Virus record (IMG/VR): IMGVR_UViG_3300032285_001316
Coordinates: 1 to 64,000 of that record
Source of the DNA: a virus
Direction: 5' to 3' (one strand)
DNA: 64,000 nt
Positions 25,512 through 59,936 of this stretch are shown here, in pieces. The notes below the pieces were generated by a model. It saw only the letters and a program-made list of their open reading frames with translations, searched no databases and was not told where the DNA came from. Positions within the stretch are counted from its first letter, which is position 1; each line of letters starts with the position of its first letter. A program made the translations under genes and the position numbers.

Positions 25512-25524
25512 CCACTCACTAACT

Positions 25525-25572
25525 AGGGGAGCCATGGTCTTTTCCCCCCATTTTTGGCCATGGCTCCCCTTC
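25525..25572 (+). terminator. Long stem-loop with C6 loop between ssb and polA
   Basis: aggggagccatggtc / ggccatggctcccct 15-bp stem; loop ttttccccccattttt. Confidence 0.6.
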
Positions 25573-40019: not shown

Positions 40020-40028
40020 ACTGGGTAT

Positions 40029-40913: not shown

Positions 40914-41023
40914 TGTCCATTACCGACTACTGTCATTGGTGCGGACACGAATTACTGAAGGGTATCTGCACCGAGGATTATTGCAAGTGTGATTGCAATG
41001 GAGCTGACGACGAGGATTATTAA
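40913..41023 (+). CDS. Tiny Cys-rich peptide (36 aa)
   Basis: GTG start overlapping the previous stop; CHWC..C....C.C.C. Confidence 0.45.
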   Translation: MSITDYCHWCGHELLKGICTEDYCKCDCNGADDEDY

Positions 41024-41025
41024 TA

Positions 41026-41514
41026 GTGCATGTACTGGTGGATTTAGATGGTGTACTGCGAGGCGGTGACAAAGATCAACCGATTTCGCAAGGAATTATT
41101 ATGGTTGGATCGCTGAGTGCGTGGAACCAAATCACGCTGATGTCGCCGTTAAACGCGAAGCAGACACAACAGTGGTTGGATGTAAATAAGATTGTTGAGT
41201 TCGACCGTATTATCGACAGTTCAGTAGGACTGGTTGATGAGTCGTTGGCAGAACGTCAGATTAGGTTTGCACGTTCCGTTGGTCCTGTAGACCTGTTTAT
41301 TACCAACAGCCCCACGAGCTGGGCATTTGCGTTCAATCAGGGAATTGCATGCGTGATGTTTGGAGTCCCCTCCTACACACGCCCAGAGTTTAGGCCAGAT
41401 GCGCCCCGCAGAGTACGCGCATGGAGCGATATTGAGCAGGCCATTGAGGAGCAAAATGCGTTAAGGACGCAAGATGCCCGCCTGACACGAACAGAGGGGC
41501 TGATGTTCGAGTGA
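41026..41514 (+). CDS. HAD-superfamily protein
   Basis: N-terminal VLVDLDGVL (DxDG). Confidence 0.7.
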   Translation: MHVLVDLDGVLRGGDKDQPISQGIIMVGSLSAWNQITLMSPLNAKQTQQWLDVNKIVEFDRIIDSSVGLVDESLAERQIRFARSVGPVDLFITNSPTSWAFAFNQGIACVMFGVPSYTRPEFRPDAPRRVRAWSDIEQAIEEQNALRTQDARLTRTEGLMFE

Positions 41515-42998
41515 CCGACGTTATATTTGGTGGCGTAGAGATTCCGTCAAACCGCACATTACTAGAAGCCAGTGGAGTAACCAATGTGTTGCTGAATTAT
41601 TGGGGACTTAGACGAAGAGGATTACCCAAGACAAAACCATACCTCATTGGGGAGCATTTTTACCCAGAGATGAAGGTATGGGTTGATAGTGGAGCAACAC
41701 AGGCAGACAAAGCAAACCTGTCAGCACGTGAGCTGGAAGAATACGCAGCAGATTACGAAGAGTTCATTGCCCTGAATTATGACCGCATTGAGGGGTTCAC
41801 AGAGTTTGATTCCCAAGTACTGGGGTTGCCAGCCATCGTGCAGAACCGTGCAGTATATGAAAACGACCCAAAACTGTGGGTTGTCTGGCACGAAGGGTAC
41901 AACGTAGCGTTATTGGAGCAGTGGGCCCAGGAATGGCAGAACATCGCCATTCCAGGCAGCGCAATCGACACGGTTACAACACTGGCCGCCATAGTCCGTA
42001 GGATTAAAGGAGCGTACGACGTACAGTTCCATGGATTGGCCGCAGCAAAACCAGATAACCTGAGATCAATACCGTTTGATACGGTGAGCACATTGTCGTG
42101 GTTGTCGCCAATGCGGCGAGGAGAGACAATCGTGTGGGACGGAAGTAAATTGGTCCGTTACCCAAAAAAAATGAAAGCCCAGGCACGATTGAGGTACAAA
42201 ACAGTCGTGGAGAAAGCTGGGCTAGATTTCAGAAAGTTCGTCGACGATGACACAAAAGAAGCCACAAAAGTCGCAATTTGGTCCTACATACAGTTAGAGA
42301 AGTCCATGTTAAACAACCAAAAGGGCCCAAAAAAGCCCGTAGTATCTGATAATAGTGATGACACCCTATACACAGGTTTGATGGAAACTGGTATAGGGGG
42401 TTCTAATAACAGTGTGTCCGAAATGCGGAAACCTGAAACCACAGAAATCATCCAAAGAGACCCTCAAGAGATAGTTTCCATGCCTGTTTTTGGGTATGAA
42501 ATGAAGACAGTTGTCGAGACAGAAGACGGTCGCGATATCCTGAAGGATGTCCCAGTTGTGCAGAGCAATTCGGGCAGTTTACGACAGTGCGATACGTGTT
42601 TTGTATCCTCAAATTGCCCCGCATTCAAGCCGTCAAATACGTGTGCGTTTAGTTTGCCAGTAGAGGTAAAGACAAAGGACCAATTAAAGGCGTTGTTGAC
42701 CACGATCGTTGAAATGCAGGGCCAAAGAGTGGCATTCATGCGTTTTCAGGAAGAGCTAAACGGTGGATACGCTGACCCAAATGTGTCACAGGAAATCGAT
42801 CGTTTGTTCAAGTTGGTGGGTAACATGAAGGACCTAGAGACCAACAAAGAGTTCGTTCAGATTACTGCCTCAAGGGAGACATCTGGAGGAGTCCTTAGTG
42901 CCATTTTTGGTGATAAAGCATCCGCTCTAAAGGAGATGCAGAAGCCCCTGGACGAGGAGCAAACCACCATCATCATTAACAACAGCCTAGAGAAGTAG
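41511..42998 (+). CDS. Fusion: divergent TGT/DpdA-like TIM-barrel domain + Cys4 and helical C-terminal domain
   Basis: WVDSGA, EFD, VWH, HGL, PFDTVSTLSW motifs in the order seen in phage TGT-like proteins; C-terminal CDTC..CP.F..C. Confidence 0.55.
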   Translation: MTDVIFGGVEIPSNRTLLEASGVTNVLLNYWGLRRRGLPKTKPYLIGEHFYPEMKVWVDSGATQADKANLSARELEEYAADYEEFIALNYDRIEGFTEFDSQVLGLPAIVQNRAVYENDPKLWVVWHEGYNVALLEQWAQEWQNIAIPGSAIDTVTTLAAIVRRIKGAYDVQFHGLAAAKPDNLRSIPFDTVSTLSWLSPMRRGETIVWDGSKLVRYPKKMKAQARLRYKTVVEKAGLDFRKFVDDDTKEATKVAIWSYIQLEKSMLNNQKGPKKPVVSDNSDDTLYTGLMETGIGGSNNSVSEMRKPETTEIIQRDPQEIVSMPVFGYEMKTVVETEDGRDILKDVPVVQSNSGSLRQCDTCFVSSNCPAFKPSNTCAFSLPVEVKTKDQLKALLTTIVEMQGQRVAFMRFQEELNGGYADPNVSQEIDRLFKLVGNMKDLETNKEFVQITASRETSGGVLSAIFGDKASALKEMQKPLDEEQTTIIINNSLEK

Positions 42999-43862: not shown

Positions 43863-44144
43863 TTACCGTCCTTCGTACTGCCACATGACTGCGTTGCACA
43901 GTGAGTGCACTGCGCCCTCAGTCATGCCTGTATCGTGATTGTGCTGTAGGTGTACGGGGTACTTAAGGAACTGAGGAGGAAATAAGTTCCAATTGACTTC
44001 CTTGTTACGTACTTCCTCTGAAGGAGACCAGTTAAGCGCTTTGCCACAGTAGTAGCACTTACCTTCTTGTAGCTTGACGTACTCTTCACGTACTTCCTTG
44101 CGTTCAAGTGTGGTTAGCTCCTCATAGTTAACAGGTAGTTCCAT
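43863..44144 (-). CDS. Endonuclease VII-like protein
   Basis: Q.GKCYYC..HLQHNHDTG...G.VH..CN. Confidence 0.7.
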   Translation of the reverse strand: MELPVNYEELTTLERKEVREEYVKLQEGKCYYCGKALNWSPSEEVRNKEVNWNLFPPQFLKYPVHLQHNHDTGMTEGAVHSLCNAVMWQYEGR

Positions 44145-44155
44145 TGTTTGCTCCT

Positions 44156-44629
44156 TTACACAGGCCAGATATATTCGTAGTCAGTTGGTTGGTAGCCTGG
44201 ATCTTCAGCCCAACCGAACTGTGAGTACCACTCGTAGTCCTTAACAAGTAGCGCCTTGCGGTGAGTACTTGCGATGCTCTCGTAGTCAGGACCAGTCATC
44301 CACAGTGGGGCAACGTCTACAAAGGTATCGTGAGACGCCTGAATAGTTGCTGTTGCCTTTTCACCGATGGTTGACTTGAAGCCACGTCGCTTCCACTCCT
44401 CCACCATCGTGACGATGTAGTTGTAAAGGACGAGCTCGTGACCGCGCCACATCTTAGCTGCGGGATGGTTGTACCAGCCCTTGGGTTCACGGTGATTACC
44501 TTGTGGGTCAAGCTTGAGGTTGGTCATAAGTATCTGCCAGCCCTCAAGTGCTTGCTTGTTAAGGCGTTTGTTGTCTAGTACTTTAGCGATGTCCGCGAAG
44601 GAACTCGTCAAAGGAACGAACGTCTGCAT
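44156..44629 (-). CDS. Pyrimidine-dimer DNA glycosylase-like (MSMEG_6728 family)
   Basis: MQTF.P..LD.KRL.KQ..E..QI..HPA..MW.G..EW..RG..SHR..L..KD. Confidence 0.8.
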   Translation of the reverse strand: MQTFVPLTSSFADIAKVLDNKRLNKQALEGWQILMTNLKLDPQGNHREPKGWYNHPAAKMWRGHELVLYNYIVTMVEEWKRRGFKSTIGEKATATIQASHDTFVDVAPLWMTGPDYESIASTHRKALLVKDYEWYSQFGWAEDPGYQPTDYEYIWPV

Positions 44630-44868
44630 ATTTTCTCACTTCCCTTTCTTCCAATAGTCCACGTACACTGACGCAGATTCCAAATACACAAAAGGACATA
44701 AGCCCGATGCTTACTGCGGTAAAGATGTCCTCAATCATTAATCGTCTCCAAACATCTCAAAAGACTTCTCTTGATAGTCGTCATACATCTCGTCACAGTA
44801 ACAGGGCGAGAATCCGCAGGTAGAACAAGGCTCGTCCTGTTCCTCTTCCTCAATCATTGTTTTCTCCT

Positions 44869-45060
44869 TTATTCGTGGCTAATGCCGTGTTCTTGATCGA
44901 TCTCAGTGTGGATGTCCCGCCTCAATCGGGGCAAGATCCATTTTTTAAATACTACGTTGTACAGCAGGGCAATAACAATACCGTCAAAGATAACTGTCCA
45001 AAATAGTTCAGCGATGATGTGATTGGGGTCAGTGGCTATGTCCCACCATGTCTCAGTCAT
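44869..45060 (-). CDS. Small membrane protein
   Basis: One TM segment. Confidence 0.55.
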   Translation of the reverse strand: MTETWWDIATDPNHIIAELFWTVIFDGIVIALLYNVVFKKWILPRLRRDIHTEIDQEHGISHE

Positions 45061-45197
45061 CTAAGTACTCCTTTAGGCACACTACACATATTGGCGTGTA
45101 GTCCCCTTTATTGGAGAACATGACTGGGATATCGGGATGTCTCTCACACATCCCCATATCCTCGTCTAGCCAGTTGTAATTTGTTTGTGTTGGACGT

Positions 45198-45581
45198 TTA
45201 CGCAGCCCCTTGATAGAACCGCGTAATGTCTCCCACACGTCGTGCACGCGCGACATCTGCATCCTCCTCTTTCTTAGTAAGGACCTTCTTACGTTTCTCC
45301 ATGGCACGGATGTGCTCTGGGATTATTGACTTGTCTCGTTCCATGATTCGGCGCTCATATTGTGTTGCGCCTCCCCAAATACCAAACTCCTCTTCGTTGG
45401 TAAGTGCGTAGTCTAAACACTGTTGCAGGATGTCACAGCGAGCACACACGTCGATTGCTTTAAGCATCTTGTGTGTCTTCTCACTTCCAGCACTAAACAC
45501 TTCAGGAAAGAATATGTCTGGGTCAGTGTTTTGACAGTTAGCCTCATCGGCATTGGGTACGTAGTTGATGAGGTTGAACAT
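45198..45581 (-). CDS. whiB: WhiB-family regulator
   Basis: ANC..TDPDIFFP..CARC....C..GIWGG.T..ER. Confidence 0.9.
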   Translation of the reverse strand: MFNLINYVPNADEANCQNTDPDIFFPEVFSAGSEKTHKMLKAIDVCARCDILQQCLDYALTNEEEFGIWGGATQYERRIMERDKSIIPEHIRAMEKRKKVLTKKEEDADVARARRVGDITRFYQGAA

Positions 45582-46169
45582 TGCATCCTCCTTAGGACTT
45601 CATCATGAGTGACTGCAGGTGTCGGTATGCTTCATAGTTACCTTGCGTCCATTCATCCATGTCCTCTCCATCAAAGCCCCACATCTCCATGTCATCTTCG
45701 ATGGCGCGTACACGATCGCAGATGTACTTGAAGATGTCCTCGTTACTCATGAGTGCCACTAGTTATCTTCTCCTATGATGTCGTGCTCAAGAGCGAACGG
45801 CTCGAGAGTGTTATAGTCATCGCCCAGCGTCATGTTGAGCGATATAAGGATGTTACCGTCAGCCTGTGACATTGCCACAGCCTCGGGAGCAAACGCGAGA
45901 ACGTGCTCCATGATGTCGCTTAGTGTTGCCTTACTCATCTGTTTCTCCTTTTATCTCATCTATCGCTCTCCACCAGTTGAAGTGCGCGATTGTTCCTGAA
46001 GGCATATTACCGAAGATTTCAGTCACGATTTCCATCGCTCGTTTTCTTTCGTCTTGTCGTGCCTTTGCTATTGCTTGCTCCTTGTTCAGTGCCATTTACT
46101 TTCTCCTTATGACAATCACACGGACACACTAGGGGTGCGTTGTTCCATTCGAACTCGTTGATACATTCG

Positions 46170-46952
46170 CTATGCTGGCTGGTTAGACACCACCCGAACT
46201 TCAGACTCATCTTCCTCCTTTGTTCCTGCGTTACGATACTCCTCTGCGTACTCTACGTCCTTGATTTCAGCAGCCTCGGGAAGGTCATACCCAGACTCGG
46301 CTGCCTTAGCTGCCTCAAGAGCATCAACCTCAGTGCGCGCTTGTACATAGTACTTGGTTACTACCTCAACTACATAAACGCTTTTGGTTTTGCCTGGGCA
46401 GTCATCGAACCAGTCGTCAGGGTCACTAGAGTTGGCGCACCAACACCCGTCTTCATCGTCACGTTTGACATAGTCTGCGTGAGATGATGGGCTGTCCCAC
46501 TCCTCCATAGAGGTAAGGATGTTAGCCTTCATCGTGTACTCTGCGCCGTACTGTTGCTCCTCTTCCCACCAGACATCGAACTCAAGAGCAGGATACTTAG
46601 CAGACATAGCTTCAATTACAGGCAGAGGGTGACTCCACGCTGTCTCAAAAGAGATGTACACGCTTGTAGGATCAACGGAGACCTCTGCGTTACAGGCATC
46701 CCATTTCGTATTCCAGTGGGCGTTGTTCCAGTCATACCAGACACCTCCTTTAGTTTCGCCAAAGGAGCTACCCTCTACAGGAGTTCCAAGGTATTCTTCC
46801 TTTGTTAGGTCAGGCGTTACAAAGGAGTGGAATGAGAATGGGGATGGTTCATTACCAGCAAGCTTAGGGGTGTCCTCAATGTGTTCTAGGAACGCTATGC
46901 GGTCATCCTCTGGCCCAGTAATGCTAATGCGGTTGTATACCCAGTTAGGCAT
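46170..46952 (-). CDS. DUF1281/YubB ferredoxin-like domain protein
   Basis: MPNW..WYDWN..HW.TKWDA..F.TAWS.P. Confidence 0.75.
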   Translation of the reverse strand: MPNWVYNRISITGPEDDRIAFLEHIEDTPKLAGNEPSPFSFHSFVTPDLTKEEYLGTPVEGSSFGETKGGVWYDWNNAHWNTKWDACNAEVSVDPTSVYISFETAWSHPLPVIEAMSAKYPALEFDVWWEEEQQYGAEYTMKANILTSMEEWDSPSSHADYVKRDDEDGCWCANSSDPDDWFDDCPGKTKSVYVVEVVTKYYVQARTEVDALEAAKAAESGYDLPEAAEIKDVEYAEEYRNAGTKEEDESEVRVVSNQPA

Positions 46953-46980
46953 GATTATTCCTTTCGTTTGTTTGTGTTGG

Positions 46981-48930
46981 CTACACGCCAGCGTTGATTA
47001 GGTTGCGCTTGATGCCAAGGTTGACGATGCCACGACCAAGTGCGAACAGGTCATTGGTATCAGTGATGTGTACGGCTACCTCGCATCCGTGAGTATCTAC
47101 GGGAGTATCATCATTGTGATACGTTTCTCGTGGGTCAGATACAAAGGCTAGTGCGGTAAGCACACCAGCACGACGGAACTCTTTGAGTAGCTTGTCACTT
47201 GCTTCGCTGTCACTCCATACACCATCAGTGATAGTGATACAGAGCTTGATAGCACGCTTAGACTCAGCAAGAACATTCTTGGCATACTTGAGCGTTTGTA
47301 GTGGCTCAGTACCACCACGACACCAAGACATGCGTACGTTAGTACTTACTCGCTCCTCAGAGGAGTAAAGGACAAACGGACGGTGGTCATAGGCAAGGAC
47401 TGTAGTACTTGCGTTAGCACGATCAAGGGCACGCTTCATAGCCCACATGGACTCGAACGCTCCCTTGGCCATACCCTGCATAGACCCAGAGATATCTAGC
47501 AGGATGACTGCCTCGATGTCTACGGCATCCTCACGCCCGATATCCCACTCATCGAAGCACTCGTCAAGGTCAGTGCCTGTAACGTAGCGTTGGATGTTGA
47601 GACGCCCGTGCTCAGTACGGCGTAGCCAACCTGGGTCAAACTCTGCTCGCAATCGCTCTAACTCGGTAGCAAAGGACTTGGAAGCCTGTGCTATTTCCTT
47701 AGGAACAACCTCGTCAAAGGTATCGAGACGTGATGGCTTGCCAGCATTGGTAGACGTAAGCTCAGCGTCTGCGTTGTACTGCTTGATTGTCTGGGCAATC
47801 TCACGCGCCTTAGACTGCTTGACCGTGTTGATGATGTCCTTGGCAATATCTGACAGGGACTTGTCACCAGTAGCAGAGCCACTGCCCATGGAGTCAGGCG
47901 TACCATCTTGAGCGCCCTCGTTGCCGTTGGTATCTGCGGATGTTGCGTTATCCTGCTCGATAGCATCAGCCACACGTTCGCTAACCTTCTGCTGTTCTGC
48001 CTTGGACATGGGCTTAGACTTGGAAGCCTTCCACTCACCAGTAGCACGGTGGTCATGACCTGATGGGTCACTTACACGCTTCCACCCACTGTTGTTGTTC
48101 CAACTGTTGTTGTTCCAGTAGTCCGTAGACGTGCTAGGCAACTGGGTGATTAGTGCGTCGTACTTTTGGATAATGTCTAGCGCAACTGCGTAGTTCTTAG
48201 GGTCAGCAAGGTTGAGCACAATGTACTGGTCAATCAAGCTACCAATTTCCTGTACGTGCTGAGGCTGTTCGTACAAGTCAGCTACCTGCTTACGCAATTC
48301 CTTAGGCAAGTACTTGCGCCCATGGAGTAAAGGAAACGCTACATTCCATTGCTCAGGCTCATCCATGATGAACTTAGCGACTGCCGCCTTGAGCCAGTCA
48401 GCTACATTACCGAAACGCTTAGTCATATACATCTCGATACGCTGGTCTTCTAGAGCATTGAACGCCCGCCATAGACCCTGCTTCTGTACATCCTTGGCAA
48501 GGTTGCTACCAGCACGTGGGGTAAGGAGGATGTGGGCAATCTCGTGAAGGCTAAGCCCCTTGATGTTGAGCACGGTGTCGGGGCTGGTGAGATCCTGTAA
48601 CGAGTTCTCGTGAAACCAGATGTTATCGGAGTCTGACCATGCGGGAGCGTCAGGCGTGCCCTGAGCCATCTTGCCCCCCATGTCTACACGGATGGGGCGC
48701 AAGGTAAGAGTGCTAGCGAACTTAGACACAACTTGTAGCATACGTACACGTCTAGCAGTGTCGGGGTCTAGCAGGTCGGTGTTGTAGAACTTAGGCGTGG
48801 AAATGTTTGTGTTGGTAGCATCCTCGCCTACTTGGATGTTGTCGATAGCGTCTACCATGTTCTGCACGTGCTTGTCCTTGGAGGACTGTATCGCAGACAG
48901 GATTGACTGTAGTGCGTCATCAGGGTTCAT
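46981..48930 (-). CDS. VWA-domain protein with HExxH metallopeptidase-like motif (CobT/NorD-like partner)
   Basis: HEIAH, NALEDQRIE, MIDAS DISGSM, GGT, ITDG. Confidence 0.85.
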   Translation of the reverse strand: MNPDDALQSILSAIQSSKDKHVQNMVDAIDNIQVGEDATNTNISTPKFYNTDLLDPDTARRVRMLQVVSKFASTLTLRPIRVDMGGKMAQGTPDAPAWSDSDNIWFHENSLQDLTSPDTVLNIKGLSLHEIAHILLTPRAGSNLAKDVQKQGLWRAFNALEDQRIEMYMTKRFGNVADWLKAAVAKFIMDEPEQWNVAFPLLHGRKYLPKELRKQVADLYEQPQHVQEIGSLIDQYIVLNLADPKNYAVALDIIQKYDALITQLPSTSTDYWNNNSWNNNSGWKRVSDPSGHDHRATGEWKASKSKPMSKAEQQKVSERVADAIEQDNATSADTNGNEGAQDGTPDSMGSGSATGDKSLSDIAKDIINTVKQSKAREIAQTIKQYNADAELTSTNAGKPSRLDTFDEVVPKEIAQASKSFATELERLRAEFDPGWLRRTEHGRLNIQRYVTGTDLDECFDEWDIGREDAVDIEAVILLDISGSMQGMAKGAFESMWAMKRALDRANASTTVLAYDHRPFVLYSSEERVSTNVRMSWCRGGTEPLQTLKYAKNVLAESKRAIKLCITITDGVWSDSEASDKLLKEFRRAGVLTALAFVSDPRETYHNDDTPVDTHGCEVAVHITDTNDLFALGRGIVNLGIKRNLINAGV

Positions 48931-48977
48931 TGTTTGCTCCTTTGTTTGTAGGAGGGGGGCTTGCGCCCCCCACCTGG

Positions 48978-50399
48978 TTAGTTAGTGGAGTACTTACCGA
49001 TGCTAACGCCAAGCTCGTTGGCGATAGTAGGCGCTTCAGCATCAAAGCGCATCTTGATAGCGTCACGCTCACCGTCCATCTTGGGGTAGTTGGACAGGAG
49101 AGAGTTGACCGCGAACTCAAAGTTCAGGCTCGTAGCATGAGACACAAAGTTCTTGAGGATACGAGTGGACATTGGTACAGAGAACTCATCGTTCATCTCG
49201 GATGCTTCACGGATATTGCTAGCAAATCCTAGGAGCGTGAAGGATGGGATGAAGTTACTCTCGATGTTGGTATCGTAGGTGAACTCCAACTTAGTACCGA
49301 AGCGGTCAATCAGCGCGGCATCTTGACGGCTAGTACCTGTGTACCCAATGCCTGTGTTCTGGTCGGCAATGAATAGCACGTCGGGGTGTACCTTGATGAC
49401 CTCATTGAGTGGGTCGATACGCAACTCGCGCTCTTCCAAGAGGCTAAGGAACAACGGAGCAGCCTTAGGAGTCATACGCGTCAACTCGTTGATGAGGATA
49501 ACACTAGGCTGTTGGATTGCCGTAGCCAGTTGGCTGTACTTCCAGCGGGTAGTGTTACCTACGCCTGTCGGTACGAACCTACCCTGTGTAACTGTCTGGT
49601 CAATCTGCTGGGTACATTCGATGGTTACGAATGGCAAGCCCTTGATTGCCGCGTAGTTACGGGCACTCGATGTCTTACCTGTACCAGCATCACCAGTAAG
49701 CAAGACATTGTCTTGCTTGCTACGTGCGTTGTCGTATATCTGCTCCTCAGTAAGTCCAAAGAACTTACGTGTGAAGTAGGGCTTGACATCTGGCACGGTA
49801 AGCACTGCGCCATTCTCTGCGGTGCTGGCAACGATTGTGCTGTAATCCATGTCTGGCTCACTTTCTGTTGTCGGAGGCAATCCCACGGTGGGAAGCTCGT
49901 AGATAGGCTCACTCAAAGGTTGCGAAGCAACCCCCGCGTAAGCGGGCTCTAGTACTACTGGCTGTTCTACGGGAACAGGAACAACCTGAATGCTAGGGCT
50001 TACTACCACTGGGGTAGCAACAAGATACTTAGCAAGTACTGCTGGGTTAGCGATCGCGGCATCCATCACTTCGTCATAGACTTCGTGGAATGGGCGACCA
50101 CTTACCGTATCCATATCCTTTACTGTGCGTACAAGCTTCTGTACTAGCACGGTAGGGGTGATTGGGAACTGAAGCATCTGGTAATCGGCTGGGGTAAGGG
50201 CTACTGACATAGGCACGCCTACGCTATCACCTACGAAGCTCAGCACATCTCCACCAGATAGCTCTCGCCAAGCACCTGCCGTACCCCTAAGCCCCTTACC
50301 ATCACGGGTGAACCTACGGATATTGCCGTCTTGTAGAGGCACAATAACTACCTGCTGAATACCTGTTGGGGTATCTTGCTGAAGGATAGTCGCGAACAT
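48978..50399 (-). CDS. MoxR-type AAA+ ATPase (CbbQ/NorQ/CobS-like)
   Basis: GDAGTGKT, ILINE, DAALIDRF, STR; adjacent to the VWA gene. Confidence 0.88.
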   Translation of the reverse strand: MFATILQQDTPTGIQQVVIVPLQDGNIRRFTRDGKGLRGTAGAWRELSGGDVLSFVGDSVGVPMSVALTPADYQMLQFPITPTVLVQKLVRTVKDMDTVSGRPFHEVYDEVMDAAIANPAVLAKYLVATPVVVSPSIQVVPVPVEQPVVLEPAYAGVASQPLSEPIYELPTVGLPPTTESEPDMDYSTIVASTAENGAVLTVPDVKPYFTRKFFGLTEEQIYDNARSKQDNVLLTGDAGTGKTSSARNYAAIKGLPFVTIECTQQIDQTVTQGRFVPTGVGNTTRWKYSQLATAIQQPSVILINELTRMTPKAAPLFLSLLEERELRIDPLNEVIKVHPDVLFIADQNTGIGYTGTSRQDAALIDRFGTKLEFTYDTNIESNFIPSFTLLGFASNIREASEMNDEFSVPMSTRILKNFVSHATSLNFEFAVNSLLSNYPKMDGERDAIKMRFDAEAPTIANELGVSIGKYSTN

Positions 50400-50686
50400 T
50401 ACTTATCTCCTTTGTTGTTTAGAACAATGCGCTTGTATTGGACATTGTCTGTGTGGTTGTTTACGTACTCGCTATCAAACTCGATGCGACTACTGGGTAG
50501 GTCATTGTCTAACAACCTATCCTCTAAGTACCTGACTAGGTCAAGCACTGCGTAGGGGTCATTACTTGTGTCGAAGTACAGGGCATCTAGTACCGTGTAC
50601 AACTCTCGTGCCGTAAACACTACGTCTACGGTTGTGCTGTCGATGGGGTCTAGAGTCTCTACAACCTCATCATCTATCTCTAACAT
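50399..50686 (-). CDS. Acidic hypothetical protein
   Basis: SD AAGGAG; directly downstream of the hammerhead. Confidence 0.65.
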   Translation of the reverse strand: MLEIDDEVVETLDPIDSTTVDVVFTARELYTVLDALYFDTSNDPYAVLDLVRYLEDRLLDNDLPSSRIEFDSEYVNNHTDNVQYKRIVLNNKGDK

Positions 50687-50698
50687 GGGCTCTCCTTT

Positions 50699-50767
50699 TG
50701 ACTCATCAGGCTAGGCTCTTACCTAGCGACGTGTAGCCCCCACACACAAGGGCTACACGTTTCGTCA
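50699..50767 (-). ncRNA. Type II hammerhead ribozyme
   Basis: Minus strand: UGAC GAAA C GUGUAGCCC-loop-GGGCUACAC GUC^ GCUAGG uaagag CCUAGC CUGAUGA GUCA; full core and three stems. Confidence 0.92.
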
Positions 50768-50782
50768 TCTCCGAAGAGGGGC

Positions 50783-50950
50783 TCAGATAATCTCTGTGCG
50801 TGTCTCGCAGTAATCTACGCAACTAGGGCAGTCAGGGTCACCACAAGGGCAAGGCTCACCGTCTAGGTATGCGTACATCTTTGCGAGTGCTTCATCCTCA
50901 CTGTCTGCTGTGACAGTGTAGGACTCTCCTGTGAGGATTGTGTACTCCAT
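50783..50950 (-). CDS. Small Cys-rich acidic protein
   Basis: MEYTILTGESYTVTADSEDEALAK..CPCGDPDCPSC; SD AAGGAG. Confidence 0.6.
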   Translation of the reverse strand: MEYTILTGESYTVTADSEDEALAKMYAYLDGEPCPCGDPDCPSCVDYCETRTEII

Positions 50951-51104
50951 TACTTACTCCTTAGGTTGAGTAGTACTAGGGCTAGTGCGCTCCCTAGGGC
51001 TACGGCTATGCTGACGGAATTGTTTGTGTTGGCAAGGCTTGCGCCTAGTGCGCTTGTCACGCCTAGCAGGGCGCACATTGTCGCGCCTAGCTTGAGATAC
51101 CTAA

Positions 51105-51356
51105 TCACTTTGCGCTCCAATCAACTTGGTAGTACAAGTCCATGTGTAACTTGTACTCGTACTCTGACTCTTCTTGTGAGTTTGAGTAGGCGTCGTTGAT
51201 TAGCTCCCAACCGTAATTGGCAGACTCATCTTTGACGTAGGTCTGTACTGCGTACCATGAGTCACCGTCGCTCTGGTCTACCAAGATAGTCAGGTAGTAA
51301 TCATCGCTGTACTCGTGTAGTACATTCTCTGTTTCTTCCCAAGTGACTAGGGACAT
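51105..51356 (-). CDS. Acidic, Tyr-rich hypothetical protein
   Basis: SD AAAGGAG. Confidence 0.6.
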   Translation of the reverse strand: MSLVTWEETENVLHEYSDDYYLTILVDQSDGDSWYAVQTYVKDESANYGWELINDAYSNSQEESEYEYKLHMDLYYQVDWSAK

Positions 51357-51763
51357 TGCTTGCTCCTTTGTTATGTGTGTGAGAGTAGGCAGTTTAGACA
51401 CTTGCCTAGGTGCTTCCTTTGATCCAAGGGCGGTCACTTTAACGGCTCGTGCTACGGACGCTCGTCATGATTGCCTAACGCGGTCATAAATCGCGACTAT
51501 TTCAAAGGTCTACTATGAGCCAAGACATCATCACTAGCCCTTGCGGGGGGACTATAGTCTCGTCACTGCGCGCCCTCAGGCATAGTTACCTCTTACCTAT
51601 CGAGAATTACATCTCTCTAGGAAGTTCTTGACGGCTTCACTCTTGGTGAAGTCGAAGTACTGGCAGTGCTCTAGGTAGGCGTGGATACCATCCACTACTA
51701 CGGCTGAACACTCCCAAGCACCTTGAGAGGTACGTCTTACGGATACGTCACTCTTGGTAACCA

Positions 51764-51973
51764 TTAGTCCGTGTACCCTTCTACGAGCGTGCCATCTTCG
51801 GCAAGACTATCTGCGTAGTCTGCTTCTCCTACACGGTAGGCGATAGGGTCGCACAACCTAAGAATTGCGGAAGGCGAAAAGCTTACGTACCCCATCTTGT
51901 AGATTGGGTAAACCTCATCGAGCATCTCTTCGTAAAGCTCAATGAACTTCTCGTGTGTGATTGTTGTTGCCAT
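51764..51973 (-). CDS. Hypothetical protein
   Basis: YEEMLDE..PS.IL...DPIAY pattern; SD AAGGAG. Confidence 0.65.
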   Translation of the reverse strand: MATTITHEKFIELYEEMLDEVYPIYKMGYVSFSPSAILRLCDPIAYRVGEADYADSLAEDGTLVEGYTD

Positions 51974-51983
51974 GAGTATCTCC

Positions 51984-52325
51984 TTAGTTCTTGTGTGTGA
52001 TTAGTGTTAGTACTTCTTCGAGCTTAGAGTCGGATAGACCTAGGTCATCTCCCTCATCATCTACGCCCCCAACTAGGATGGCGTCGCCCATGATGATGTC
52101 TGTCGCCCCAAAGCGCGTTCTAAAGAGCAACGTCGCTAAGAGGTTGAGAGGTAAGCCGTCGAGCTTTCCCTCTTCGTTGACGTACATAGTGAGGTCATCA
52201 TCTAGGCTAACGGCTTCGATGTATCCTCCTACGGCGTCGCTAATGACTCTGTATGAGCCCTCAGGTGCGTCTAGGTCGACTGTCTGTATGCTCTTAGAGG
52301 CTCTGACAATAAGTGCTTTGCGCAT
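51984..52325 (-). CDS. DUF3846-family protein
   Basis: VGGYIEAV..MYVNEEGKL..LP.N..AT..I.GD. Confidence 0.85.
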   Translation of the reverse strand: MRKALIVRASKSIQTVDLDAPEGSYRVISDAVGGYIEAVSLDDDLTMYVNEEGKLDGLPLNLLATLLFRTRFGATDIIMGDAILVGGVDDEGDDLGLSDSKLEEVLTLITHKN

Positions 52326-52585
52326 TAGAGGCTCCTCTCTATGTATTCTGATTGTGCTTTGACTAGACGCTTTAGGGCGCTAATCGTGTCGTGCATTTTC
52401 TCTACGCGATGCTCATAGGCGTTGACTGTTGCCTCTAGGTCTCGCTCTAGGTCTTTCTCCACACTAGAAAGGTTCTCTACTGTGAACTGATGCTCTAGCA
52501 AGTACCTTTCGTAATTGCTAATGTCTTGCGCTTTGTCTGCGAATAGAAGCTCATACTCCCACTCCGCTAATGGCTCTTTGCTCAT
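52325..52585 (-). CDS. Hypothetical coiled-coil protein
   Basis: SD AAAGGAG. Confidence 0.6.
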   Translation of the reverse strand: MSKEPLAEWEYELLFADKAQDISNYERYLLEHQFTVENLSSVEKDLERDLEATVNAYEHRVEKMHDTISALKRLVKAQSEYIERSL

Positions 52586-53027
52586 CTTGCTTTGCTCCTT
52601 TACTCTAGGGCTACCCTAAGGACGCCCAAGCTTGTGGGGGTTCTAGGGGGCGAGAGCCCCCTAAGTCTCTTTCGAGAGGCTTTGTGTGTTATCTAGAGAG
52701 ATAAAGACTTATAGAGAGAGACACACATACGTCTATACACGCTCTCCCTATAAGCCCTCACCTGTTACATATGACATACCCTAAGAGAGTTTCTCTATCG
52801 TGGGGATTCTGTCTTATGCCTGACTTATGTACATACCATGCCTAAGAGTGACTCTCACCCTTGTTAGCCTATGGCGATGTGCTTCCTAAGCCTAGAAACA
52901 CAAAAAGCCCTACAGGCTTACCTGTAAGGCTCTCTCTGATGCTAGTACCTGATACGAGTAAGGGGGGCTAGTCTGCGACCTGGCGGTACACTCGCTTAGC
53001 CCCCCTCTCTCTTAGAGCAGTAGCCTA

Positions 53028-53387
53028 TTAGGCGTTGATCAGCTCTACAATGTCTTCCCAGCCTGCGTTGAGACCGAGACCCTTGATGATGCTAAGGCAT
53101 TCGGTGCTTACCGCGTAGGCAAAGGAGTCTTTCCGTGCCTGCTCACTCTCGTAGGCAGACTTAGGCATACCCTTGAAAGCCTGGTATGCCTGGGCAATCT
53201 GAGGGATAGTGAAGAAACCGCCAAGGCTAGTTACCTCGTATTCGCGCGAGAGAACCTCAGCACGCTTAGCGCGCTTGAAGTCAAGCACGAATGGGCGGAA
53301 CTGGGGCATACCCTCTAGCACGCGTAGTTGTGCGGGCGTAGCGGTTTCGAGGTTGAGTGCGTCGGCGGTAATAACTGAAGTAGACAT
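53028..53387 (-). CDS. Hypothetical protein, first gene of the leftward early block
   Basis: SD AAAGGGG. Confidence 0.65.
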   Translation of the reverse strand: MSTSVITADALNLETATPAQLRVLEGMPQFRPFVLDFKRAKRAEVLSREYEVTSLGGFFTIPQIAQAYQAFKGMPKSAYESEQARKDSFAYAVSTECLSIIKGLGLNAGWEDIVELINA

Positions 53388-53788
53388 ATGTCTACCCCCT
53401 TTCTTATGTGTGTGTTTAGTTGGGGCGAATACCCCTTAGAGCCTAGGTGCGAGACATAAGCCCTAAGGGGAACAGGGTGCGCACGCGCCTTAGAGACACG
53501 CACGCGCCCTGCCCGTGTAAACACACGGAAAGATTACCTAGCCCCGTTAGCGCGTCTCTCACACGCGCCTAGGGGCGTTGCCGTATTAGGGCGGAAACCA
53601 CAGTTGCCGAAGCCCCTGCGTCTAAGACAAACCTAGCCCAAGACCTGCCAAAGTAACCGCACGCTTAGCCAGTAAGCACCAGGTGAGAAACACGGTTGAG
53701 GCCCTCTCAATCTAGGCAGTAGCCTAAATCGGCCACAGTAGCTCAATTAACAGATAGATCGCCCCTACCGATGTGGCAGACTTGATAT

Positions 53789-56364: not shown

Positions 56365-56562
56365 ATGCGCGACAATCACGAAGCACGTACCAATCTGTAC
56401 GAAACAGCCAAGAAAATCGGTCTAGGCAACAGCATCGAAGACCCTCAGACAGGCACACACTGGGTAGACCTCTCTGGCTTGACCCCCGAACAGGTGTACC
56501 AGCACCCTCTTTTTGGCTCTGAAAAGCCTTGGGAACGCGAAGAACGAGAAAAAGGCAAGTAA
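56365..56562 (+). CDS. Hypothetical protein
   Basis: ORF track. Confidence 0.5.
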   Translation: MRDNHEARTNLYETAKKIGLGNSIEDPQTGTHWVDLSGLTPEQVYQHPLFGSEKPWEREEREKGK

Positions 56563-56769
56563 ATGGCATCTATCTCTGACTCAATTGCCCTTATTGGCCT
56601 CATTTTGGGCTTTTCATTCCTCTACATCGTCAAATATGACAGTCTGAACCCCAAAACTAAGCGTTTTATGTGGGTTCTTGGCCTTCTTATCCTTCTCTAT
56701 GTTGTTTTTACTTACGCTGACGACTTCGTTATCGACGTAAAGAACTTCATTGCCGCGATCAACGCGTAA
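56563..56769 (+). CDS. Small two-TM membrane protein
   Basis: Hydrophobic segments. Confidence 0.55.
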   Translation: MASISDSIALIGLILGFSFLYIVKYDSLNPKTKRFMWVLGLLILLYVVFTYADDFVIDVKNFIAAINA

Positions 56770-56814
56770 AAAAATAGGTCGCGTCGGGAAAAAACGGGTA
56801 GGAAAGATAAAAGT

Positions 56815-57066
56815 ATGGGCCAGAGCAAGCGTGGGCGCACCTTTAAAACGGGTGAAGCCAAAAAAAGCTACTATGAGCGCCTAGAGCACTACAATGCTAC
56901 TGGGACATGGCCTAAGGCTAAAAGTGCTCTTAGCGGGGCACAGAAGGCTCCTGAGGCACATTCTGAGGTGCATCCAGAAGAACAAGCGCCTGCAGCTGCT
57001 CCTCACCCCACTCTTTTTGATCTAGACATCCCTACCCCACCTTCTAGGGGCACGTTCGACCACTAG
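56815..57066 (+). CDS. Hypothetical protein
   Basis: ORF track. Confidence 0.5.
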   Translation: MGQSKRGRTFKTGEAKKSYYERLEHYNATGTWPKAKSALSGAQKAPEAHSEVHPEEQAPAAAPHPTLFDLDIPTPPSRGTFDH

Positions 57067-57074
57067 TAGCCTTA

Positions 57075-57157
57075 TTGACACCGTTTTTTTATGGTGTAAC
57101 ATAGTTACTAGCTGGGCGGCGGTTTTTCCTCCTTTCTTCCGCCGCCTAGCCTTTTCT
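57075..57157 (+). ncRNA. Candidate ~50-nt sRNA: promoter + hairpin displaying an anti-SD loop
   Basis: TTGACA-16nt-TAACAT, then a 12-bp stem gctgggcggcgg/ccgccgcctagc with loop tttttCCTCCTTTCTt and a U tail. Confidence 0.55.
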
Positions 57158-57231
57158 CAGTTTTTTTAGGCAATGCCTTCTGAGGTTGTTCTCTACACTT
57201 AAAAATAGAGATTACAACCCTAGGAGATATC

Positions 57232-58395
57232 TTGACTATTTACGACTTCCCACCCATGACATGGAGCGACTTCCTCGCTATCCCAGATGGTGAGACTGTC
57301 CACAACTACGGCGCGCAGGAATGTGTCGCTCTTGCAAACCTGTACGCAACATCCGTACTTGGCTGCAACCTCCGCACTGTAAACATCGGTTCTGCCGAAG
57401 AGTGGTGGACCACTGACGCGATCCTCGATGCATGGGGCTTTGACCGTGTTACCGAAAACCCACAGGTTGGTGACATCTTCATTGGTTCGTTCGGTCTGTA
57501 TGACAGCCAGTTCGGTCACATCGGTGTTGTTGTCCGTGCATGGGATGGCTCGACCTTCGGAACCATGGAGCAGAACGTAGGCCGTGAGGTTGTCTCACGT
57601 CACGACCGCACCATGCGTAACATTGACGGATTCCTGCGTACCCGCAACCAGGCTGCTATTGGTGGGGGCGCTCCTACACCTGCCCCTGCAGCTAACCTCG
57701 CTCCTACACAGCGTCAGGCTGGCCCTCTCGGTGTATTCCGTCGTGCAGAGCCTAATCAGTCGTCAGAGCACCTTGACGGTGACCTCGAGGCTGGCGAAGT
57801 TGGTAACTTCGTAGGCTATGTCCACGGTGAAGACCGTGGCGGAAACGACATCTGGTTCCAGGGTGTATCGGGCAACTACTTCTGGTCAGGTGCCTTCACA
57901 GACTCAGGAACACACGATTTGCCTGATCTGAACGCTCCTGCAGCTCCTGCACCTGCTCCCGAGCCAGCACCAGTGGCTGACCCAGCTCCAGCAGCACCCG
58001 TTGCTGATCCAGCTCCCGTAGAGCCTGCGCTTGTAAATGTAGACCCTACTCCCCTCCCCTCCGTAACCCCCACCTCAACAACGTCTGACGTTGTTGCCCC
58101 AGTAAAGGAAGCCCCCGTGCCACTCACCGCTGAAGAAATTGCAAAGCAAACCGCTTCGATCGAGGCTCTTCCCGAGCCAGACCTCGGTGCGATCATCCCT
58201 ACCGCTAAGGGTCGCAAGGTTGCTTACGCACTGTACGCAGGTGTTTCACTTGTCGTAGCTAACACCGCAGTAGCATTCGCCGCACTCCAGACGGCATTCC
58301 CCGCATGGTTGGTAGTTGCCCTTGCCGTAGTTGGCAACCTGGCCACACCATTCAGCGCGATTGCTATCGCCAACGCGAAGAACGCATCTAAGTAA
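57232..58395 (+). CDS. Endolysin: CHAP domain + wall-binding region + Pro/Ala linker + C-terminal two-TM domain
   Basis: QECVAL (Cys), FGHIG (His), EQN; V.G...G..IWF cell-wall-binding-like segment; hydrophobic tail. Confidence 0.85.
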   Translation: MTIYDFPPMTWSDFLAIPDGETVHNYGAQECVALANLYATSVLGCNLRTVNIGSAEEWWTTDAILDAWGFDRVTENPQVGDIFIGSFGLYDSQFGHIGVVVRAWDGSTFGTMEQNVGREVVSRHDRTMRNIDGFLRTRNQAAIGGGAPTPAPAANLAPTQRQAGPLGVFRRAEPNQSSEHLDGDLEAGEVGNFVGYVHGEDRGGNDIWFQGVSGNYFWSGAFTDSGTHDLPDLNAPAAPAPAPEPAPVADPAPAAPVADPAPVEPALVNVDPTPLPSVTPTSTTSDVVAPVKEAPVPLTAEEIAKQTASIEALPEPDLGAIIPTAKGRKVAYALYAGVSLVVANTAVAFAALQTAFPAWLVVALAVVGNLATPFSAIAIANAKNASK

Positions 58396-58411: not shown

Positions 58412-58450
58412 TCCCCCAGTAGCTGAAAAGTTATTGGGGGATTTTTCTTT
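58412..58450 (+). terminator. Rho-independent terminator
   Basis: tcccccagtagc-loop-gttattggggga + T run. Confidence 0.75.
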
Positions 58451-58569
58451 GTTAGTAGAAGGGTCCTTTGCTCCTAAGTTGTAGACTGGAAATCCTTCAA
58501 GCCGCTCCTTGCCTTTCGAGATGTGGGGCGGCATTTTTCACCCCTAATTACAAACGAAAAGAGACCGCC

Positions 58570-59547
58570 ATGGGCATTCTAGGAACGGGCATTCAAGAGG
58601 GAATTCTCCTCAAGCCAATCAAATATCAGTGGGCAATGGACCTTTATGACCAGGCGGTAGCAAATACCTGGTTCCCTAATGAAATTCAACTGGGTGAAGA
58701 TATTGCAGACTTCAAAAAGATGTCTGAGGATGAGCAGCATGCCATCACCTTCCTGCTGTCATTCTTTAACCCCTCTGAGCTCATTGTAAACAAGGCCCTA
58801 GCATTTGGCGTGTACCCCTATCTAAACGCGCCAGAAGCCCATTTATACCTTGCTAAGCAGATGTGGGAGGAAGCCAACCACTGCATGAGCTTTGAGTACG
58901 TTCTGGAGACTTTCCCCGTGGATCGTGCCAAGATCTATGACCAGCACGTATCTGTACCCTCTATCAAGGCCAAGGAGGACTTTGAGGTCAAGTTCATTAA
59001 GCGAATGACCGAGCAGACTCTCGACATCACTACTGTAGAGGGCAAGCAGGACTTCGTACGCAACCTGGTGGCCTACTCGGTCATTATGGAAGGCATCTGG
59101 TTCTACAGCGGCTTTATGACCGCTTTGTCGTTCCGTCAGCGTAACCTACTTCGTAACTTTGCCTCGTTGATCGACTGGGTAGTGCGCGACGAAAGCCTCC
59201 ACCTCAAGTTCGGCATTAATCTCATTGTGACCGTACTGGAAGAGAACCCAGAGATTGTTACTGAGGAGTTTGCCGCTGAGATCCGCAAGATGATTCTGGA
59301 TGCTGTAGACATGGAAATCGCGTACAACCAGGACCAGTTCCCCAACGGTATCCTCGGTCTAAACGCTAAGTACGTAGCTCAGTACACGCAGTACCTGGCA
59401 GATCGTCGCCTGGAAGAACTTGGGTTTGCTCCTGAGTACAACGTGGCTAACCCAGCCCAGTGGATGGCCACAGCTAACGATACTCTGCAGCTCGTGAACT
59501 TCTTTGAGTCCACCAACACTTCGTACGAAAGTAACGGAGCAAAGTAG
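58570..59547 (+). CDS. nrdB: Ribonucleotide reductase R2 (beta) subunit, class Ic-like signature
   Basis: W.P.EI...D, EEANH, MEGIWFYSGF, RDESLH, NFFE...Y. Confidence 0.93.
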   Translation: MGILGTGIQEGILLKPIKYQWAMDLYDQAVANTWFPNEIQLGEDIADFKKMSEDEQHAITFLLSFFNPSELIVNKALAFGVYPYLNAPEAHLYLAKQMWEEANHCMSFEYVLETFPVDRAKIYDQHVSVPSIKAKEDFEVKFIKRMTEQTLDITTVEGKQDFVRNLVAYSVIMEGIWFYSGFMTALSFRQRNLLRNFASLIDWVVRDESLHLKFGINLIVTVLEENPEIVTEEFAAEIRKMILDAVDMEIAYNQDQFPNGILGLNAKYVAQYTQYLADRRLEELGFAPEYNVANPAQWMATANDTLQLVNFFESTNTSYESNGAK

Positions 59548-59549
59548 TC

Positions 59550-59715
59550 TGCTACACTAATCACGAAAGCTAACACAGGCTGTTAGCCGTAGGACTCTCC
59601 TTAACGGGAGGTGCCCTAGCTGGGCCTCACGAGTGTGCCCCTCCAAAACAGTTGTATGCCATAACCCCCGCCGTTGACCTCCCTACTATCTGGGAATGCC
59701 GATGACGGGGGTTTT
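59550..59715 (+). ncRNA. Candidate structured ncRNA 1
   Basis: TGC-TACACT extended -10; hairpins GCTAACA/TGTTAGC, CTCC/GGAG, GCCC/GGGC; terminator aacccc..ggggtttt; no ORF. Confidence 0.45.
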
Positions 59716-59716
59716 G

Positions 59717-59885
59717 TGCTAATATCTCTACTACGAGACTGAGCCTCTGTTGGACAAGTTACTGCAGTAACCCCATCACGCAAATGAGCTTAGCTAGCTC
59801 CCCCAGGTATCAGGGCGGTCATATTTGAGGCGGTACCGCCGCACACCCCCATCACTAAGCGCTCTACAGTTGGTGGGGGTTTTGT
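59717..59885 (+). ncRNA. Candidate structured ncRNA 2
   Basis: TGC-TAATAT extended -10; palindromes GTTACTGCAGTAAC, GAGCT..AGCTC, GGCGGTACCGCC; terminator accccc..gggggtttt. Confidence 0.4.
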
Positions 59886-59893
59886 GTTTACAA

Positions 59894-59925
59894 AAAGCCC
59901 CCCAGTAGTTAGCTGGGGGGCTTCT
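59894..59925 (-). terminator. Terminator of the NlpC/P60 gene (possibly bidirectional)
   Basis: aaaaagccccccag...ctggggggctt. Confidence 0.75.
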
Positions 59926-59936
59926 TATTGGCTGTC

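Follow-up and report, generated by a model that had tools for sequence, protein, structure and literature searches.

A promoter-linked hairpin with an anti-Shine-Dalgarno loop, a candidate small RNA in an uncultured phage family

The window analyzed here is a 64-kb stretch (64,000 nucleotides) that forms the first part of a 93,151-bp virus record (IMGVR_UViG_3300032285_001316) with a G+C content of about 50%. A WhiB-like regulator gene on the minus strand (45198-45581) points to an actinobacterium as the host. The genome also encodes a baseplate J-type protein with distant likeness to its counterparts in Streptomyces phages. Gene calls made in this analysis gave the following layout around the locus of interest.

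43.8-53.4 kb, minus strand: leftward gene block
53.8-57.07 kb, plus strand: rightward run of small genes
56815-57066, plus strand: ORF of 83 aa, the final gene of the rightward run, which would be terminated by the hairpin described below
57232-58395, plus strand: CHAP-domain endolysin with a TTG start
58412-58441, plus strand: terminator of the endolysin gene, directly 3' of it
58468-59547, plus strand: small subunit of ribonucleotide reductase (RNR)

The 83-aa ORF matched no Pfam or PHROG family and had no relatives in IMG/VR, and a comparison of the DNA from 56500 to 57700 with GenBank phages returned zero matches. The lysin has distant relatives only, and their upstream contexts differ. 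When five complete relatives were searched by tblastn, no counterpart of the 50-62 kb region was found; they lack the lysin and RNR genes as well as the small ORFs. The locus at 57075 is thus situated in a part of the genome that is variable.

The module that occupies positions 57075-57168, for which orthologues were found in two relatives only, G011 (IMGVR_UViG_3300037189_005453) and G013 (IMGVR_UViG_3300028394_000066), is made up of the following elements.

57075-57080, plus strand: −35 hexamer TTGACA, invariant as (A)TTGACA in the G011 and G013 modules
57097-57102, plus strand: −10 hexamer TAACAT after a 16-nt spacer; TAGTAT and TAAACT (TAnnnT) at equal spacing in the orthologues
57110-57111, plus strand: predicted transcription start, 7-8 nt past the −10 hexamer according to usual promoter geometry
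57111-57122, plus strand: 5' arm of the hairpin, GCUGGGCGGCGG, with the lower stem GCUGGG common to G011 and G013
57123-57138, plus strand: all-pyrimidine loop of 16 nt, UUUUUCCUCCUUUCUU, unpaired in the minimum-energy and centroid folds
57128-57137, plus strand: CCUCCUUUCU within the loop, the same 10 nt with which many 16S rRNA genes end
57139-57150, plus strand: 3' arm of the hairpin, CCGCCGCCUAGC
57151-57168, plus strand: U-rich tail CUUUUCUCAGUUUUUUU(A), which together with the hairpin resembles an intrinsic terminator and aligns with the tail of a plain terminator in L024, which has the most closely related lysin cassette

All components named in the preliminary description, a TTGACA-16-TAACAT promoter leading into a 12-bp GC hairpin with a U tail, are thus seen in the sequence. 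The stem consists of 12 pairs between 57111-57122 and 57139-57150, ten of them G-C and one G-U, and the hairpin folded alone has a predicted energy of −24.7 kcal/mol with the loop wholly open. Between the −10 hexamer and the hairpin lie 8 nt in this genome and 7 nt in each of the two orthologues. Transcription beginning near 57110 and stopping near 57158 would yield an RNA of about 50 nt. The promoter matches at 10 of 12 positions; six such sites occur in the 93-kb genome, against 11-22 in shuffled sequences, and the one at 57075 is one of two among the six that are wholly intergenic. The sequence CCTCCTTTCT occurs twice on the plus strand, against 0.075 expected occurrences, and the chance of a 16-nt loop composed of pyrimidines only is about 1e-5 by our own arithmetic.

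The likeness of the loop to the 3' tail of 16S rRNA, proposed earlier, holds at the level of the genes: GCTGGATCACCTCCTTTCT is present in many genomes of Actinomycetota and in other phyla too. The identity extends over 10 nt and concerns gene-encoded tails, which may differ from the mature end in the host of this phage. The possibility that the loop is read on the opposite strand as the Shine-Dalgarno sequence (SD) of a minus-strand gene was rejected, as no start codon lies within reach.

With intrinsic terminators the hairpin shares a GC-rich stem, a U-rich tail (CUUUUCUC, with five U in eight positions, and a run of seven U beginning 10 nt past the stem) and a position on the sense strand after a stop codon. 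It differs from them in its loop, usually about 3-8 nt long and without sequence conservation in terminators but 16 nt long and conserved in sequence here, and in being fed by a promoter. Due to the long loop, the hairpin was skipped by a standard terminator scan. A promoter of its own that is conserved is expected of a stand-alone small RNA gene, and ATTGACA-16-TAnnnT is kept in G011 and G013. The U-rich tail, in contrast, follows the hairpin in this genome and is missing from both orthologues.

Relatives were drawn by means of the polymerase, which several hundred IMG/VR contigs encode at 71-86% identity; complete genomes of 90-96 kb are among them, and 15 genomes or large fragments from this set were compared. 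Both orthologues retain ATTGACA and the 16-nt spacing, while the letters of the spacer drift. Their upper stems are fully compensated, with CAGAGGU/GCCUCUG and UGGGGGG/UUCCCCA in place of the CGGCGG/CCGCCG found here, which amounts to three compensated positions among the three orthologues. The orthologous loops, CUUUCCCUCCUUUCU and UUUCCUCCUUUCUU, are nearly identical to that of the module. The homology is bounded exactly by the −35 hexamer and the end of the hairpin, and the flanks are non-homologous. In G011 and G013 an Hsp20 gene lies upstream of the module, and the hairpin, devoid of a U tail, ends 5 nt ahead of a conserved tRNA-like RNA of about 81 nt. A T arm and an acceptor stem with G3:U70 can be recognized in the latter, which was called by neither ARAGORN nor Rfam. 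Processing of its 5' end, presumably by RNase P, would release a free hairpin RNA of about 46 nt. Two routes, a U-rich tail in one genome and tRNA-like 5' processing in the others, would thus lead to one small product, which argues, without proving it, that the hairpin RNA itself matters.

At the tRNA-like locus of other relatives the picture is more varied. TTGACA is also found upstream of the tRNA-like RNA in G003 and G006. At the equivalent position G003 has a short loop, UUUCGG, G010 a C-rich loop, CCCCCCUUC, and G004 and G006 have no strong hairpin; an anti-SD loop is therefore not obligatory at this locus. Wider searches yielded little. The exact loop-plus-2 pattern retrieved from IMG/VR only antisense copies of ordinary SDs beside start codons, a pattern combining the promoter with the lower stem recovered G011 as the sole true relative, and the Hsp20 neighbor used as a query returned its own contig and one further contig with an identical match, nothing else.

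That hexamers and loop are chance features of an ordinary terminator is, in our estimate, very improbable. Promoter-like sites are enriched neither in the region nor in the genome, and most relatives are without an orthologue of the module, as such a coincidence would predict. The hexamers, their spacing and the loop are nevertheless kept in two phages whose flanks are unrelated, and both the rarity of a 16-nt all-pyrimidine loop and the strand bias of loop cores given below speak against coincidence.

Downstream of the module, two further features precede the lysin.

57178-57227, plus strand: predicted lysin leader hairpin, in which CUUCUG is paired with the lysin SD, UAGGAG
57195-57200, plus strand: TACACT, candidate −10 hexamer of the lysin cassette, inside the leader hairpin

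The lysin cassettes of this genome and of L024 have TTCTnTACACTT and AGGAGATATCTTGACTAT in common. At the position of the anti-SD hairpin, L024 carries an ordinary tetraloop terminator, and the U-rich tails of the two align. By this equivalence the hairpin also takes the place of a terminator in front of the lysis cassette. As far as the sequence allows a judgment, the hairpin doubles as the terminator of the rightward small-gene transcripts and so is not solely a small RNA gene. The lysin probably has a −10-like element of its own in TACACT. In RNA that reads through from upstream, the model fold would place CUUCUG onto the lysin SD, and no lysin would be made from early read-through.

These features bear on a reading in which the module controls the lysis cassette in cis, as a leader or switch. 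The promoter at 57075 would then serve the lysin and RNR genes and be followed by an attenuator, or the hairpin would be a 5' stabilizer whose loop masks the lysin SD. The order of promoter, terminator and lysis gene is that of lambdoid late control, where lambda PR'-tR' is read through under Q. The stretch from the tail to the lysin is devoid of a strong sigma-70-type promoter. The lysin SD UAGGAG is a complement of the loop, and in read-through RNA it is sequestered locally as well. The role of the module as the lysin's own promoter or leader is, however, weakened by TACACT and the leader fold within the lysin cassette itself. TACACT and the ribosome-binding site (RBS) are common to L024, where no promoter precedes the terminator, and in the predicted fold the loop is not paired with the lysin SD. 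The orthologous modules, moreover, are followed by a tRNA-like, non-coding RNA instead of a lysin, and the lysin of this genome is missing from the five complete relatives searched. We regard this explanation as improbable.

A scan of the whole genome revealed three strong plus-strand hairpins of similar design, with a long GC stem and a pyrimidine loop of 14-16 nt, each just past a stop codon. The two sisters of the hairpin in the module are the following.

25525-25570, plus strand: hairpin with a 15-bp stem and the loop UUUUCCCCCCAUUUUU, between the SSB and DNA polymerase genes
74626-74669 of the genome (outside the window), plus strand: hairpin with the loop CAUCUGCCCUCCUC, behind the gene next downstream of the one for the major head protein

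The capsid-operon hairpin was found in every genome examined. In 20 sequences, 99.7% of the cells were paired and nine of the 15 pairs were altered on both sides; none of 500 shuffles matched this covariation and slid registers did not come close. The core of its loop, GCCCUCCUC, is nearly invariant. The hairpin between the SSB and polymerase genes occurs in 62 distinct versions among 81 sequences (80 relatives). Loops of at least 10 nt are present in 47 of the 62 versions and consist of pyrimidines to 84%, CUUUCCUCCUUUGU and UCUUCCCUCCCUUCUU being typical. CCUCC, CUCCC or CCCUC was found in 20 of these 47 long loops, compared to 8.3 ± 2.3 after shuffling (maximum 16 in 2000 shuffles). The preliminary description had suggested a search for a conserved loop with a covarying stem in related phages, and such hairpins are indeed found, as two orthologous modules and two paralogous hairpin sets. 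It had named a plain terminator as the case in which the stem is conserved without the loop; the orthologues show the opposite pattern, a kept loop on a changing upper stem.

Further hairpins of the anti-SD-loop kind lie immediately 5' of tRNA-Asn in G002 and G007. The one in G002 is preceded by a TTGACA-18-TAAGAT promoter and has the loop UUUACCUCCUUUCU, 11 nt of which (ACCUCCUUUCU) are identical to the 16S tail. L186 and L199, which are unrelated high-GC viral contigs, also carry post-stop hairpins, with loops of 16-17 nt that read ..UUUCCUCCUUUCUC. In a census of strong hairpins between co-directional genes in 16 genomes, where counts are phylogenetically non-independent, 26 of the 42 long loops reached a pyrimidine content of 80% or more on the sense strand, a purine content that high being seen in none. 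Among these long loops, an anti-SD core of the CCUCC type was counted 23 times on the sense strand and an SD core 0 times.

Several other roles for these hairpins were considered and dropped. A role at the level of DNA was rejected on account of the sense-strand orientation and the U tails. A pseudoknot between the loop and the SD of the next gene was discarded given that downstream SDs are constant regardless of the motif and that some hairpins precede tRNA-type RNAs lacking an ORF. Zero covariation was found between loops and downstream SDs, which are the same with or without the loop motif. The position of class hairpins before non-coding RNAs, together with downstream SDs that do not depend on the loop, argues against cis control of the next gene. 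A phage-specific late promoter, 'AACATAGTTA', was also rejected; it matches a motif after the capsid terminator of G003 and G004 and is not conserved before the major head gene.

The anatomy of the module, its conservation, the covariation of the stems and the strand bias of the loops are direct observations. From the genomes compared, we consider the module to belong to a class of hairpins found throughout the lineage on the sense strand, with variable but compensating stems and conserved CCUCC-type loops, at the ends or starts of transcription units. The same comparison shows a genuine and conserved feature that goes beyond a plain terminator.

The last point bears on a further alternative, in which the hairpins act as terminators or insulators only, without an RNA acting in trans, and the pyrimidine loop is kept, for example, for a hypothetical termination or processing protein such as a cold-shock-type antiterminator or a reader of CUU/CUC. 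Every hairpin of the class occupies a unit boundary or directly follows a stop codon, always on the sense strand and mostly with a U-rich tail, and termination alone would explain the position of the hairpin at 57111, given the plain terminator that L024 has before its lysin cassette. The polymerase gene leaves no room for a promoter past its hairpin, so read-through must be regulated there. The loops consist almost entirely of CUC and CUU words, and the segment 40001-42000 is nearly free of CTT and CTC (6 in total, compared to about 44-116 in most other 2-kb bins of the genome). From these loops and the CTT/CTC-poor operon, a CUY-reading factor may exist. On the other hand, the CCUCC-type core exceeds what the composition of the loops leads one to expect, and the match to the 16S tail reaches 11 nt in G002. 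A conserved promoter 7-8 nt upstream has no role in a pure terminator, and the hairpins of G002, G011 and G013 lack a U tail and precede a tRNA or tRNA-like RNA. We consider this account unlikely, though less so than the other alternatives.

The simplest explanation for a CCUCC-type core in an open loop, by analogy with known RNAs, would be pairing with GGAGG-type sequences. As had been stated in the preliminary description, the early minus-strand genes use AAAGGAG-type SDs; strong ones are found in the block at 43.8-53.4 kb, behind CA-rich leaders. The loop was predicted to pair best with these sites, with a mean duplex energy of −9.9 kcal/mol for the leftward block and −6.5 kcal/mol for the other genes (Mann-Whitney p = 7e-5); within the block lie all four of the top-ranked loop-RBS sites. 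The top candidate partner is the following.

53395-53405, minus strand: AAGAAAGGGGG, within the RBS that serves the first leftward gene (53028-53387); a candidate only, ranked highest in the predicted pairing with the loop

Its predicted duplex with the loop reaches −16.0 kcal/mol with 11 consecutive pairs, one of them G-U. The modeled ranking of targets is at the same time a ranking of SD strength and shows capacity rather than specificity, since any sequence containing CCUCC is automatically complementary to strong SDs.

We favor a reading in which the module consists of a promoter and an anti-SD-loop hairpin that yields a small RNA, pairs through its loop with RBSs and serves as a terminator as well, and we assign it a probability of roughly 0.45. 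The host-type promoter would fire at the first base of the stable hairpin and give rise to a hairpin RNA of about 50 nt; we infer from the layout that this RNA is made and that it ends at the tail. The open 16-nt pyrimidine loop would then present the complement of a strong SD (CCUCCUUUCU) and may base-pair with purine-rich RBSs, presumably free of a chaperone as in Gram-positive RNAs with C/U-rich loops. Such pairing would lower the translation of messages with a strong SD. Within the phage, the best candidate targets are the genes of the leftward block (43.8-53.4 kb); messages of the host could equally well be targeted.

The preliminary description had gone further and proposed a decoy that masks strong SDs while leaderless phage messages escape. 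The conserved loop, the covarying stem and the preferred pairing with the leftward SDs agree with this proposal. The escape of leaderless messages is not supported: the neighboring plus-strand genes, described as leaderless in many cases, are packed or overlapping with weak SDs, and a −10-like hexamer suited to a leaderless start was found for one of ten. The terminator position ahead of the lysis cassette also sets a limit, as the hairpin is not solely a small RNA gene. Stoichiometric masking of all strong SDs by a decoy would, moreover, be less economical than seed pairing with a few RBSs. A broader scenario is doubtful in our view, namely that actinophage hairpins mimicking the 16S tail, whose sources would be a dedicated promoter, tRNA-type leaders and the 3' termini of abundant late messages, jointly reset translation in the infected cell and, as an RNA analogue of T4 RegB, silence early or host messages with strong SDs, or else act as decoys for host toxins that cut the anti-SD region.

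Mimicry of the 16S 3' tail could also be directed toward proteins, with the hairpin as a decoy or substrate of an anti-SD RNase toxin or as a ligand of proteins that bind the 16S tail, such as bS21 or Era-type KH proteins. Identity to 16S rRNA runs beyond the CCUCC core, both here (CCUCCUUUCU) and in G002 (ACCUCCUUUCU), and there are several copies of the hairpin per genome, one of them on a probably highly expressed late operon. Actinobacterial toxins that cut at or beside the anti-SD (RelE1) or inside it (MazF6) exist (PMC12620021), and bS21 provides a precedent through its binding to an SD/anti-SD-like element of OLE RNA (PMC12054373). The best-conserved set, however, the capsid-operon hairpin, has GCCCUCCUC without the UUUCU extension, and a cleavable decoy would be effective only in large excess. 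To us, protein-directed mimicry appears a rather remote explanation.

Among known systems, the closest in design to the small RNA proposed here are the cuckoo RNAs of Alphaproteobacteria (CcsR1-4, alpha-r14 and alpha-r15; RF02791, RF02345), in which anti-SD loops are conserved and stems are rich in compensatory changes (PMC4615179). Variable stems around an anti-SD loop are found in both, with CCUCCUCCC there and CCUCCUUUCU or GCCCUCCUC here. Cuckoo RNAs are stand-alone small RNAs with two to four adjacent CCUCCUCCC-loop hairpins, whereas the present module has one hairpin with the loop UUUUUCCUCCUUUCUU, is borne by a phage with an actinobacterial host as the probable context, has a U-rich loop with the UUUCU extension and, like its class, doubles as a terminator or leader. 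The nearest Rfam matches to 57083-57165 remained below threshold (CcsR1, 18.1 compared to 65.3 bits; ar15, 18.6 compared to 40). By its sequence the element would thus stand outside the cuckoo, CcsR and ar15 families while following their design.

The actinobacterial 6C small RNA, whose C-rich loops bind G-rich RBSs without a chaperone (PMC6486639), belongs to the same phylum as the putative host and likewise carries C-rich loops left unpaired on top of GC stems. The sister hairpin of the module, at 25525, has a loop with six C. The 6C RNA is, however, chromosomal and conserved in sequence, with two C-rich hairpin loops out of three loops in total, while single loops of CCUCC and U-rich sequence are found here. 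The Rfam model of 6C gave no match to 56950-57300 up to E = 10, and the element is a single hairpin where 6C has two with loops of six or more C. In Bacillota, small RNAs of the RNAIII, Rsa and LhrC types pair with SD regions through UCCC loops (PMC4615179). They are longer and multi-domain, with proven targets, compared to the minimal hairpin and candidate targets of the phage element. A precedent for the dual use proposed here is that the loop of a terminator hairpin can itself be a regulatory seed (10.1101/2024.01.16.575843). The RegB endoribonuclease of T4, which inactivates the SDs of early mRNAs (PMC3014915), is a functional analogy only, as another phage device aimed at the SD GGAG of an early class of messages. 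Whereas the protein RegB cleaves the SD as a nuclease, the RNA described here would mask it.

Regulatory RNAs with anti-SD loops are thus known from bacterial chromosomes (cuckoo/CcsR, 6C, RNAIII), and the phage-borne, single-hairpin form with dual use appears to be new. Our literature search found no description of anti-SD-loop RNAs in actinophages, and a 2025 review on phage small RNAs mentions neither 'Actinobacteria' nor 'mycobacteriophage'. The minimal unit consists of one hairpin with its own conserved promoter, and the design of its loop recurs across a large family of uncultured phages. If the loops pair with RBSs, they would provide these phages with a simple and portable means of shifting translation between classes of genes. 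A unit of about 50 nt with a promoter, a loop motif and candidate targets that can all be named is directly testable even though the phage is uncultured, and, if the proposed reading is true, it would offer a compact tool for translational control in actinobacteria.

Immediately 3' of the promoter-hairpin module, related phages carry a tRNA-like RNA that is conserved and about 81 nt long; its positions in the two genomes with an orthologous module are:

L224:3416-3496, tRNA-like RNA of the related phage genome G013
L182 about 825-905, minus strand, tRNA-like RNA of the related phage genome G011

It is additionally present in G003, G004, G006 and G010, and the genome studied here (G000) lacks it. 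The RNA has a T arm and a 7-bp acceptor stem that includes G3:U70, the pair that confers alanine identity and that tmRNA also has; the middle part of the RNA is atypical and contains GGAG. Neither an ARAGORN call nor an Rfam match was obtained for it.

In two related genomes, anti-SD hairpins lie directly 5' of a tRNA-Asn gene:

L113 about 1098-1200 (G002 genome 21098-21200), minus strand, hairpin upstream of tRNA-Asn
G007 88626-88664, hairpin upstream of tRNA-Asn

Their loops are UUUACCUCCUUUCU and UUAUCCCCCUUUC, and the G002 hairpin is preceded by TTGACA-18-TAAGAT, itself immediately 3' of a stop codon. Two viral contigs of 63-68% G+C that are unrelated to this phage, L186 (IMGVR_UViG_3300028573_000095) and L199 (IMGVR_UViG_3300042988_002298), also have hairpins immediately 3' of stop codons; their loops, 16-17 nt long, read UGGUUUCCUCCUUUCUC and UCUUUCCUCCUUUCUC. 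The L199 hairpin and the 57111-57150 hairpin of this genome have the stem start GCUGGGCGGCG in common.

Two conserved motifs accompany the paralogous capsid-operon and SSB|polymerase hairpins:

L153:2671-2735 (genome 74670-74734), GAGAACATAAATA, at the equivalent place in about 19 relatives
Window 25505-25524, CCACTCAC(T)AAY, at the equivalent place in about 80 relatives (L032-L111)

The first, with the variants CATAGTTA and CATAAGTA, lies 15-25 nt upstream of the invariant SD GGAGGAUU, which belongs to the gene that follows the capsid-operon hairpin. This motif is possibly a phage-specific late promoter and is reminiscent of T4 TATAAATA; its conservation is weak in this genome and it was not found upstream of the major head gene. 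The second motif follows the stop codon of SSB and stands ahead of the SSB|polymerase hairpin; a related sequence, CTAACTAAACT, precedes the capsid-operon hairpin. The role of the second motif may be to provide stop codons in several frames.

In the lysin leader (window 57178-57227), the predicted fold pairs the SD UAGGAG with CUUCUG, and the lysin SD would be masked in read-through transcripts only. A -10-like TACACT (57195-57200) inside this leader hairpin is shared with the closest relative of the lysin cassette (L024). Several distant relatives (L001, L005, L015, L019, L026) likewise have a small hairpin upstream of the lysin, directly adjoining the SD.

Between convergent genes, the long gene-free stretch at window 59548-59936 holds several strong hairpins and may contain another structured RNA:

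Window 59845-59880, hairpin with a 16-nt mixed loop
Window 59895-59923, hairpin reading as a terminator on both strands

Across the whole genome, sigma-70-type promoter matches of at least 10/12 are depleted (6 vs 11-22 in shuffles). On the plus strand, CTT and CTC together occur only 6 times in the 2-kb bin 40001-42000, most other bins holding about 44-116; this scarcity may or may not be connected with the anti-SD loops, which consist almost wholly of CUC/CUU words. Finally, the leftward genes (window 43863-53412, minus strand) have uniform CA-rich leaders (ACACAAACAAA...) immediately 5' of AAAGGAG, suggestive of a translational enhancer or leader cassette common to these genes.
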